This document shows, piece after piece, positions 2,202-4,538 of a stretch of 4,538 nt of DNA (position 1 is the first letter of the stretch; every line of letters starts with the position of its first letter). The notes beneath the pieces are model-generated. The model did not search any database. It was not told the origin of the DNA and saw only the letters and a list, made by a program, of their open reading frames with translations. The translations under genes and the position numbers were made by a program. Location of the stretch: IMG/VR virus record IMGVR_UViG_2734482587_000007; one strand, given 5' to 3'. The DNA comes from a virus (taxonomy: Duplodnaviria > Heunggongvirae > Uroviricota > Caudoviricetes).

Positions 2202-2558
2202 TTATTCAGTTCTGGATTTTGTCGCCCTGCGTATCCGCGCTTTCGCGTTACGCTCAATCTGTATCAGCTTTTCTATATTTCTCCGCCTTTCCTGTTCCTC
2301 CTGGCGCAATAGCCTTACATCATCTGCCAGTCTGGTTTCTCTTTTTGCCACAGAGAGCATCCAGTCAAACGGCTCCACAACCGCACCGCAGATTTTACAG
2401 CGGACCTGACGCTCTTTTTCGTCAACCCGTACAGAGGCGTGATGGCAATATGGTCTTTCCGATGGCTCATAAAGAAAATTAACCTGATTACGAGGGTCAT
2501 CCTCTTTTACCGGAAATAAAACGATATTGCTTAACTCATCTTCTGGTTTTATTTCCAT
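2202..2558 (-). CDS. hypothetical protein with putative Zn-ribbon (C-H-H...C-x2-C) and basic, coiled-coil-like C-terminus (118 aa)
   Basis: ATG at 2558-2556 with AAGGAG 6 nt upstream. An alternative in-frame ATG at 2615-2613 directly abuts the upstream gene's TGA (2618-2616) and would add 19 residues. The protein contains YCHHASV...RCKICG followed by an R/E/K-rich tail. Confidence 0.55.
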   Translation of the reverse strand: MEIKPEDELSNIVLFPVKEDDPRNQVNFLYEPSERPYCHHASVRVDEKERQVRCKICGAVVEPFDWMLSVAKRETRLADDVRLLRQEEQERRRNIEKLIQIERNAKARIRRATKSRTE

Positions 2559-2615
2559 GCTCCTCTCCTTTGATGCGAATGCCAGCGGTAATTGAAGCCT
2601 GATAGCTAATTTCAT

Positions 2616-3038
2616 TCACAGTATCGCCTCCTGAAAATTACCCTGATAGAAAGCCAGTACACGCTGCATAGCTTCGCTCTTCCGGCACTCGCGACAGATT
2701 ATATTCAGGCGCCTGTCGTAGCGGCGTATTTCTCCGTCAGGTAATGACCAGATAAGGTCCGGATCAACAACAACCGGTTTCCTCACCTTTACTCTCGAGA
2801 GTTTTTTGCGGGCGCTTTGCCAGTCCTTGCGAGCCTGTTCAGACGGGAATAAGCCGTAGCCAGAATTATATACATCACCACTTGCGACCAGTTCTATGCA
2901 TAAGCGACCGACAGACGCACGACTGATACCTGTTTCATCTGACAACTGCCGAATCGTGACCCGACCGTCCTGATGCACGAGTTCCACAATTCGCGTCTTC
3001 AGTTCTTCCCGCTGTTCGGGAGTAAAAGGTTTCGCCAT
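2616..3038 (-). CDS. hypothetical small DNA-binding protein with putative HTH/winged-helix N-terminus (140 aa)
   Basis: ATG at 3038-3036 with AGGAGG 5 nt upstream; stop TGA at 2618-2616. The segment TIRQLSDETGISRASVGRLCIELVASG looks like a helix-turn-helix. It starts 14 bp after the DnaC-like stop. Confidence 0.65.
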   Translation of the reverse strand: MAKPFTPEQREELKTRIVELVHQDGRVTIRQLSDETGISRASVGRLCIELVASGDVYNSGYGLFPSEQARKDWQSARKKLSRVKVRKPVVVDPDLIWSLPDGEIRRYDRRLNIICRECRKSEAMQRVLAFYQGNFQEAIL

Positions 3039-3052
3039 AAATCCTCCTGAAA

Positions 3053-3769
3053 CTACTTAACAACCCTCGAATGGCTAACATTCGGACGCCAGCTCTCCCA
3101 GTTAAAATTCACCCAGCGCCCGNNNNNNNNNNNNNNNNNNNNNNNNNNNNNNNNNNNNNNNNNNNNNNNNNNNNNNNNNNNNNNNNNNNNNNNNNNNNNN
3201 NNNNNNNNNNNNNNNNNNNNNNNNNNNNNNNNNNNNNNNNNNNNNNNNNNNNNNNNNNNNNNNNNNNNNNNNNNNNNNNNNNNNNNNNNNNNNNNNNNNN
3301 NNNNNNNNNNNNNNNNNNNNNNNNNNNNNNNNNNNNNNNNNNNNNNNNNNNNNNNNNNNNNNNNNNNNNNNNNNNNNNNNNNNNNNNNNNNNNNNNNNNN
3401 NNNNNNGATAGCTGCCGCTAAGTGATTCTTCCCGGTACCAGGTTTTCCGCTGAACGCAAAATTTGTACACCCGGTCATCAGTTCATCGGCGATGGATTTC
3501 GCCTGGCTTAACGCGTATCGCTGGCCGTCGTTCTGCACCTGGTAATTCGCAAACGAGCATTTACGGTGCAACGGCTGGATGCCTGAGCGATTCAGAATTT
3601 TTTCCACCCGCAACTGGCGATTCAGGCGGTTGATCTCCTCGCTACGTTTCTGGCCTTCAGCAAGTTGCCACTCGCGCCACTCCGCTACCGTTCTGAATGG
3701 GGCGGTTACATGTGGCGGGGTCAGTCGGCGGATGCGTTCCAGAACGCCGCCTGTCGCAATATTTTTCAT
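3053..3769 (-). CDS. phage DnaC-like helicase loader (IstB/DnaC AAA+ family), interrupted by an N gap
   Basis: The N-terminal 120 aa, including FSGKPGTGKNHLAAAI (Walker A), aligns by eye with E. coli DnaC. ATG at 3769-3767, 6 bp after the initiator stop. The middle of the gene is an N run (3123-3406), so the real length and frame continuity to the stop TAG at 3055-3053 cannot be verified. Confidence 0.8.
   Translation of the reverse strand: MKNIATGGVLERIRRLTPPHVTAPFRTVAEWREWQLAEGQKRSEEINRLNRQLRVEKILNRSGIQPLHRKCSFANYQVQNDGQRYALSQAKSIADELMTGCTNFAFSGKPGTGKNHLAAAIXXXXXXXXXXXXXXXXXXXXXXXXXXXXXXXXXXXXXXXXXXXXXXXXXXXXXXXXXXXXXXXXXXXXXXXXXXXXXXXXXXXXXXXXXXXXXXXGRWVNFNWESWRPNVSHSRVVK
3123..3406. other. 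assembly gap or masked block (284 N)
   Basis: Uninterrupted run of n inside the DnaC-like gene. Confidence 1.
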
Positions 3770-4123
3770 GGTCCGTTACCCCCTGAAGCCTGGCGGGATC
3801 GCACTGTCCGGCAACGAGACGGTGTTAACCTGTCGGAGCAACGTCTCAGGCCGAACACCTTTCGGCGCGAACAGGCCCTGGTATTCATTGGCGATGCTGT
3901 GTCGAATCACCTGCTCAGGTGTAAAACCCTGCTGACGGAATTTTTCCAGTTCCCGTATCGCCCCGTTAGCGCCCTGCTCCGTTCGAATCGGTTTTCGCAA
4001 TGCCTGTCTGAACCGGACCCACTCATGCCAGAGTGTTTCCGGCAACCAATCGGGCAGCTCAATAGCCTCCGGCTCGAATTTTTTAGACGCTCGTTTTTGG
4101 CGAGGGGGAGATCAGTATTTAGA

Positions 4124-4144
4124 TCTTCCTCTTCCTCTTCCTCT
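4124..4144. repeat. hexanucleotide repeat (TCTTCC)3 encoding a poly-Glu stretch
   Basis: tcttcctcttcctcttcctct at 4124-4144; on the minus strand, in the linker frame, it reads GAG GAA repeated (EEEEEE). Confidence 0.9.
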
Positions 4145-4168
4145 GGTAACGCTTTTTGATCCGTTTGT

Positions 4169-4187
4169 GTAACGCTGGCAGCGTTAC
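4169..4187. promoter_or_regulatory. 19-bp palindrome GTAACGC-TGGCA-GCGTTAC, putative initiator-binding iteron
   Basis: Perfect 9-1-9 dyad read directly from the sequence, located in the linker-coding part of the initiator gene. Related half-sites: GTAACGC at 4146-4152 and an everted pair GTTAC (4214-4218) / GTAAC (4229-4233). Confidence 0.45.
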
Positions 4188-4375
4188 CTTTTCGTTTCAG
4201 TTCGCGTATTTTTGTTACTCGCTCGTTTGTAACCGCCCGTTTTTTTTAGAGCTTTTTCCGTTATGACGTTCAAAGTTAGGTAGAGAAAGCCCTCCGTCAT
4301 TTTCGACCAGCCATCCAACCTGAATTAACGCATCAGCAAAACCAGACATAAAAGTGATGCGATCTATTGCACTTT

Positions 4376-4398
4376 TTGTAACGCCGCGAGCGTTACAA
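4376..4398. promoter_or_regulatory. 23-bp palindrome TTGTAACGC-CGCGA-GCGTTACAA, second copy of the same dyad
   Basis: Perfect 9-5-9 dyad with the same GTAACGC/GCGTTAC arms, about 209 bp from the first copy and inside the initiator N-terminal coding region. Confidence 0.45.
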
Positions 4399-4538
4399 TC
4401 TGCATTACCGTCTATCATTTGTTGATCCGCCCATGCCCAGAAGCGAATAACCTGAGGTAGCCTGAGTTTAACGGACACTCCTTCCTGAAATAGAATGGCA
4501 TCAGAAGGAGCTAATAATGAGCAGAAAAACCCAACGTT

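Follow-up and report, generated by a model that had tools for sequence, protein, structure and literature searches.

Conserved 19-bp dyads beside a polypurine tract form a candidate replication origin inside the initiator gene of a decayed Rac-like prophage

Origins embedded in the gene of their own initiator are a known kind, and for temperate phages with initiators outside the λ O family, most origins lack annotation. In phage SPP1, oriL lies within gene 38, the replisome-organiser gene, and the ori and crr regions of phage P4 form two separated clusters of initiator-binding repeats. Iteron plasmids encode winged-helix initiators (RepA, RepE and π) that bind short repeats beside an unwinding element. 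In phage λ, 19-bp inverted-repeat iterons and an AT-rich tract lie in the middle of gene O (PMC7466680), and an active origin, oriJ, has been reported for the Rac prophage (PMC3945230). Here, we compare with these systems a stretch of 4 538 nucleotides of viral DNA (IMG/VR record IMGVR_UViG_2734482587_000007), which is referred to as the window. The initiator family that it belongs to is unexpectedly broad and sharply defined.

The window is a fragment of a Rac-like E. coli or Shigella prophage that has decayed. Its closest sequence matches are E. coli prophages (~98–99%), followed by “phage Rac” of strain 442/2 (93%), and the minus strand is the coding strand of all its genes. The initiator gene, at the ydaU position (3776 to about 4453, minus strand), is adjoined by ydaV (3053–3769, minus strand), which encodes a DnaC/IstB-like helicase loader and whose intactness cannot be judged because positions 3123–3406 are masked (a run of 284 N). 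Next to ydaV are the gene of a 140-aa DUF977 protein with a winged-HTH signature (2616–3038, minus strand) and a zinc-ribbon ORF (2202–2615, minus strand), and further downstream in the prophage are genes for QueH, an epoxyqueuosine reductase (1368–2054), and for a hokD-type toxin (985–1197), both in agreement with the annotation of an intact relative, L001. At the opposite edge, the left end of IS600 (IS3 family; 4449–4538, plus strand, by its IS600 annotation) truncates the initiator gene; the same 90 bp occur in more than 3 000 E. coli records, chromosomes and plasmids alike, with up to 43 copies per genome.

Three lesions in the initiator gene emerge when it is aligned with intact 262-aa genes. 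The IS600 end has taken the place of the first ~34 codons, with the junction at 4449–4453; intact relatives have A6 where the coding strand here has A8 (the T8 run at 4240–4247), a +2 frameshift; and a 10-bp deletion at approximately 4103–4110 has taken away one copy of a TCCCCCTAAA direct repeat. An earlier interpretation of this DNA, hereafter the sequence-only reading, placed its candidate sites in an initiator gene, which in the window is a pseudogene, and the A8/T8 run that it noted next to the sites is the frameshift itself, a decay mutation and no part of an origin. The cis sites and the purine tract described below are identical to those of intact relatives, so that in this decayed prophage the candidate origin sites survive while the initiator is dead. 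Since the initiator is a pseudogene, the origin of the window would be a relic, and it could fire only with a related initiator supplied in trans.

The heptamer GTAACGC, counted together with its complement GCGTTAC, occurs six times in the window against 0.45 expected, a number reached by none of 200 shuffles, and five of the six copies fall within 4146–4396. Four of these five are paired in perfect GTAACGC-N5-GCGTTAC dyads, of which the window holds two against 0.06 expected. The distal dyad, site I (GTAACGC-CGCGA-GCGTTAC; 4378–4396, both strands), consists of heptamers at 4378–4384 (plus) and 4390–4396 (minus), and its arms extend to 9 nt (4376–4384 and 4390–4398). The proximal dyad, site II (GTAACGC-TGGCA-GCGTTAC; 4169–4187, both strands), consists of heptamers at 4169–4175 (plus) and 4181–4187 (minus). 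The fifth copy is a half-site at 4146–4152 (GTAACGC on the plus strand, GCGTTAC on the coding strand, where it is read Ala-Leu-Pro). These two dyads with identical 7-bp arms, the half-site and the non-random clustering were all claimed by the sequence-only reading and are borne out; the everted pair that it placed at 4214–4233 is present too (GTTAC at 4214–4218 and GTAAC at 4229–4233), but only as pentamers, which we regard as degenerate relics of half-sites. Seven of the 13 GTTAC/GTAAC pentamers of the window lie within 4100–4420, where ~0.6 is expected, and some relatives have GCGTTAC without a mismatch (gene nt 335) in place of one member of the pair. A further degenerate half-site with one mismatch, GCATTAC (4402–4408, minus strand), lies 12 bp from site I; relatives from Serratia, Yersinia and Rouxiella, as well as phage Rac of strain 442/2, have GTAACGC without a mismatch at the equivalent position. 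In total, the window has only two full dyads, 209 bp apart, with one perfect and one degenerate half-site, and it contains no run of four or more closely spaced tandem iterons. A DnaA-box scan of 4100–4450 returned no site. Away from the cluster, the sixth heptamer (GCGTTAC, 2245–2251) stands alone within the zinc-ribbon ORF, at its 3′ end; the intact L001 has it too, and as a single copy it is at chance level.

Within the intact protein, site I codes for a loop of the N-terminal domain (aa 53–59, DCNARGVT) that has low confidence in the AlphaFold2 model, and site II codes for the disordered linker between the domains (aa 122–129). Together with the half-site at 4146–4152, site II encodes aa 122–136, which have pLDDT values below 50 and lie between the N- and C-domains.

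The half-site at 4146–4152 abuts a 21-nt polypurine tract, (GAGGAA)3 on the coding strand (4124–4144, minus strand; polypyrimidine on the plus strand). This tract with the adjoining 4105–4123 is a candidate DNA-unwinding element. The sequence-only reading had pointed to a moderately AT-rich stretch at 4079–4125, which has only 57% AT against 51% for the window; the purine tract is the better candidate and is itself barely AT-rich there (52–58% AT against the same 51%). Across the family, a polypurine run, typically TAGAGAAGAGAAGAGAAGAGAAGA, directly follows the last linker half-site, with a gap of 1–2 nt in 34 loci, and the junction GCGxxAC-C(T)AGAG... is conserved among loci. The median longest purine run is 19 nt, compared with 6 nt in background windows (95th percentile, 9), and at +10..+40 the AT content exceeds the locus mean by 17 to 21 points. 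In addition, the tract is read in all three frames across relatives.

Our preferred explanation, to which we give a probability of roughly three in four from these sequence comparisons, is that the dyads are binding sites of the prophage’s own initiator and, with the adjoining polypurine tract, constitute its origin, located inside the initiator gene. The winged-helix-like N-domain would bind GTAACGC-N5-GCGTTAC as a dimer and would also bind the extra half-sites, phased 11–12 bp apart. The sites are distributed over a cluster in the linker-coding segment, another ~200 bp upstream in the N-domain coding sequence and, in enterobacterial members, a third just before the start codon. As the sites form separated clusters rather than a tandem array, looping or wrapping is suggested, and we infer that initiators bound at the clusters could assemble a complex comparable to the λ O-some. 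This complex would melt the adjacent (GAGGAA/GAGAA)n tract, and the O-like C-domain with its DnaT-like tail would then recruit the DnaC-like loader YdaV and the host DnaB. Inverted repeats in the linker segment, a putatively meltable tract, an O-type C-domain and an adjacent loader gene together reproduce the logic of oriλ, and for this reason the locus is read as an origin.

The comparison with oriλ can be made point by point. As in λ and in other lambdoid and Stx phages, the candidate origin lies within the initiator’s own gene, in its middle, linker-coding segment; the putative binding unit is also a 19-bp inverted repeat; and the last site is adjoined by a purine/pyrimidine-asymmetric tract that may melt easily. 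The protein, like λ O, would have two domains, an N-terminal one that binds DNA and a C-terminal one that recruits the loader encoded by the next gene (PMC7466680). However, λ has four to six tandem iterons, whereas the sites here form two or three clusters about 200–280 bp apart, one of which lies in the coding sequence of the DNA-binding domain itself, and the half-sites also occur as direct repeats with 11–12-bp phasing. Moreover, the tract here consists of purines in (GAGAA)n or (GAGGAA)n repeats and is only weakly AT-rich in the window, and the N-domain has no detectable relation to that of λ O (no Pfam match and no Phage_rep_O N-domain). The sequence-only reading’s analogy with λ gains support from the conservation of the sites, from the linker position beside the purine tract and from the joint change of word and N-domain described below.

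The initiator itself consists of a winged-helix-like N-domain without a Pfam match, a linker and a λ-O-like C-domain; the winged-helix fold match is weak. It matches PHROG 2509, annotated as “replication initiation protein”, and its C-terminal half matches PHROG 678 (“O-like”) and the O-annotated proteins of Gifsy-2 and mEpX1. A Pfam scan of the intact protein found no family at E ≤ 0.01, DUF1376 included, and across Pfam and NCBIfam the sole match was a weak one to the C-terminal tail of DnaT; likewise, nothing beyond weak DnaT-tail matches came from searching PDB sequences with a profile. The residues concerned are the last ~20 of the protein (…SLPDSAIPPGFRG; 3776–3835 in the window, 4370–4430 in L001), which weakly resemble the tail of E. 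coli DnaT, a replication-restart protein (NCBIfam, E = 0.006; PDB entries 2ru8, 6aep and 9zbt, E = 0.2–0.7). This likeness hints at a docking peptide that may be common to proteins partnering a helicase or its loader.

To assess conservation, 88 diverse loci were compared, comprising 80 from a scan with one genome per species and eight phage loci; their hosts include Enterobacterales, Pseudomonas, Burkholderiales, Xanthomonas/Xylella, Planctomycetota, Verrucomicrobiota and others. Heptamers number 388 in the segments from −100 to +480 of the gene but 19 in 190 kb of flanking DNA, a 76-fold difference in density. Both clusters, in the N-domain loop and in the linker, are present in 80 of the 88 loci, with one to five heptamers per cluster in relatives, and site I is at the same position in 82. 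The dyads at gene nt 149 and 358 are kept even in phages that have only the N-terminal half in common with the Rac-like genes, at 51–66% identity (Klebsiella ST11-OXA245phi3.2, E. coli ZX5 and TL-2011b, and Enterobacter BUCT554), and phages of Xylella, Ralstonia and Pseudomonas (42–47% identity) carry the same word in the same places. Conservation beyond coding constraints, which the sequence-only reading named as a check, is therefore found down to 42% protein identity and across phyla.

A third perfect dyad is located 31–33 bp upstream of the ATG in intact close relatives (77 of 80), and the IS600 insertion has removed it from the window. In enterobacterial relatives generally, an upstream perfect dyad lies 12–43 bp before the ATG, over the ribosome-binding region, and this position lends some weight to the strongest rival explanation, that the initiator binds the dyads solely to hold down its own expression, with the dyads as autoregulatory operators or roadblocks and the true origin elsewhere. 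Plasmid Rep proteins offer a general precedent, since they bind inverted repeats as dimers and thereby repress their own promoters. We nevertheless consider this explanation improbable. The upstream dyad is present in just 14 of the 88 diverse loci while the intragenic clusters are found in 80, and repression does not account for the conserved polypurine/AT-rich tract, read in three frames, that invariably adjoins the linker cluster. Moreover, operator and origin functions are not mutually exclusive, and the upstream dyad of enterobacterial members may also autoregulate the initiator gene while the intragenic sites serve as the origin.

The DNA word goes with the type of N-domain. In divergent members of this N-domain family, which form sister clades, a variant replaces the word: GTCACGC at both clusters in two loci (L140 and L173) and in Vibrio phage 1.211.A, and at the linker cluster only in a further locus (L167); GTTGCGC at both clusters in L137; and GTCCGC at both clusters in epsilon15 and BUCT711, where the distal cluster is at nt 55–101. 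All word classes end in ...AC-C(T)AGAGAAGAG. Conversely, the dyads are kept in phages with the same N-domain but unrelated C-domains, and the gene of the K-12 Rac protein YdaU, in which the C-domain is shared (85% identity) and the N-domain is of the DUF1376 type, contains no GTAACGC. Across these comparisons, the word evidently changes together with the N-domain type.

This pattern also bears on a second rival, in which the dyads are operators for the DUF977 HTH protein (2616–3038), for CI/Cro/YdaT regulators or for a host factor. DUF977 does carry a winged-HTH signature and its gene is ~1 kb away, and the sequence-only reading had put it forward as a possible binder. Yet DUF977 homologues are confined to 24 phage records, all from Escherichia or Shigella, and none was found in the dyad carriers ZX5, TL-2011b, BUCT554, Klebsiella phi3.2, Usme, VW-6S, PAN70 and QkW1; on this distribution the DUF977 operator was rejected. 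The immunity regions and neighbouring genes likewise differ among dyad carriers, the immunity regions completely, which argues against phage regulators, and a common host factor is unlikely because the hosts span several phyla. The only constant partner of the dyads is the N-domain encoded by the same DNA, and we regard any other binder as very unlikely.

The K-12 Rac prophage offers a further comparison. Its oriJ/YdaU-YdaV region has the same genomic position and an adjacent ydaV, and the C-domain is 85% identical over 119 aa, with a BLASTP alignment that covers aa 144–262 only. In place of GTAACGC, the K-12 ydaU linker has TGTTCA(AAC) repeats with a 33-bp period. These lie at gene nt 360, 393 and 426 (L007, NC_000913.3 1419000–1425500; ydaU 2120–2977), with an inverted copy at 453 and others at 149 and −21. 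It is plausible that they are the iterons of the classical oriJ, at the equivalent linker position. As both the N-domain and the linker repeats differ, K-12 Rac and the present family would represent two origin specificities built on a common C-terminal module.

As in iteron plasmids, the same word is used both inverted and direct, and a dyad at the start of the initiator’s own gene may act as an operator; unlike in those plasmids, the repeats are embedded in the coding sequence of a phage gene, the match to the winged-helix fold is weak, and no sequence homology to Rep families was detected in the Pfam/NCBIfam scans or the PDB profile search. P4 and SPP1 differ in that their initiator families are unrelated to the present one, and in that the clusters here are separated by ~200–280 bp and not by kilobases.

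The spacing of the sites is regular. Consecutive heptamers are 11, 12, 23 or 24 bp apart in inverted and direct arrangements alike, which corresponds to helical phasing. In Rac-like and Serratia/Yersinia genes, a 12-bp (four-codon, “DCNA”/“KCNA”) insertion duplicates the left arm of site I, giving heptamers in the order +,+,− at gene nt 149, 161 and 173; this is an iteron gain through in-frame duplication. The geometry speaks against a third rival, in which the palindromes act as RNA or DNA hairpins, for example as an antisense intrinsic terminator formed by 4169–4187 followed by CTTTTCGTTT. A scan of 3700–4538 did return one terminator-like match, and it is this dyad, on the plus (antisense) strand, but promoter- and terminator-like matches there are at chance level (one terminator-like match against 1.2 expected), and the sole promoter-like match is inside IS600. 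In addition, the other dyad has no T-run, the spacers vary freely, and in relatives 30 pairs of heptamers are direct (“++”) repeats 12 bp apart, an arrangement unable to form hairpins. A hairpin function is thus hardly credible.

Codon usage at the sites indicates that selection targets the DNA word and not the peptide. Where site I encodes G-N-A-x-x-V-T/S, the glycine codon is GGT in 70 of 71 loci (background 19%), the valine codon is GTT in 69 of 71 (background 29%), and the asparagine codon is AAC in all 71. The linker word is read in differing codon phases, as xNA or VTx and as ALP or xVT, and the second dyad in ST11-OXA245phi3.2, ZX5, TL-2011b and BUCT554 is in a codon phase different from that of the Rac-like genes. 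Among close relatives (n = 78; 96–100% identity, from a single-sequence viral-contig scan, and too close for a deep comparison), the arms vary at three of 35 positions and the spacers at seven of 10 (Fisher p = 2.5e-4), and in the upstream dyad five different spacers occur between identical arms. Part of the conservation of site I is at the protein level, because the site overlaps the conserved peptide GNAxxVT. The explanation that the repeats are a by-product of a peptide motif (GNAx/xVT) or of chance, which could point to the x-N-A-x-x-V-T encoded in the same frame by both dyads of the window, was rejected and has a negligible probability, since synonymous codons are fixed against background usage, one word specifies NA, VT or AL depending on its codon phase, the frame of the third half-site is a different one, and shuffles never match the observed count.

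The breadth of the family has wider implications. A 69-aa N-domain segment that the window encodes matches 3 636 cluster representatives (50% identity clusters) at E ≤ 1e-3, so that the candidate family comprises ~3 600 such clusters without a Pfam model, in hosts from Enterobacteria to Planctomycetota and Verrucomicrobiota. We tentatively propose, at somewhat less than an even chance, that this is an undescribed and very widespread family of phage and prophage initiators, each carrying its own two-part origin, with the word in loop and linker, a simple specificity code, GCG-NN-AC, of which at least four variants occur naturally, and a (GAGAA)n tract common to all of them. Literature searches, which covered few subscription journals and concerned oriJ, ydaU, the 19-mers, the heptamer flanks, the purine tract and epsilon15-like origins, returned no description of the motif and no binding, unwinding or replication experiment on any member. 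If the proposal is true, nature would have provided a collection of orthogonal origin/initiator pairs, and thousands of prophages could have their origins located directly by a sequence signature. Together, the word at two fixed places of the gene and the purine tract make a simple DNA signature by which the origins of this large, unnamed initiator family can be sought and tested in many bacterial phyla. The element also illustrates clearly how a DNA signal shapes coding sequence, with fixed synonymous codons and one word in several frames. Furthermore, the natural specificity variants suggest how origin/initiator pairs could diverge and so avoid cross-talk between co-resident prophages.

A separate feature lies just past the purine tract, at the start of the C-domain. 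There, a C5...G5 inverted repeat encodes PPxNPPRG and is conserved in many homologues; it is found at about 4096–4110 in the window and at gene nt 452, 424, 434 and 525 in four other loci (L010, L013, L014 and L007, respectively). This repeat may add to the origin, or it may be conserved for the protein motif alone. The deletion of a TCCCCCTAAA repeat unit in the window falls at this inverted repeat.
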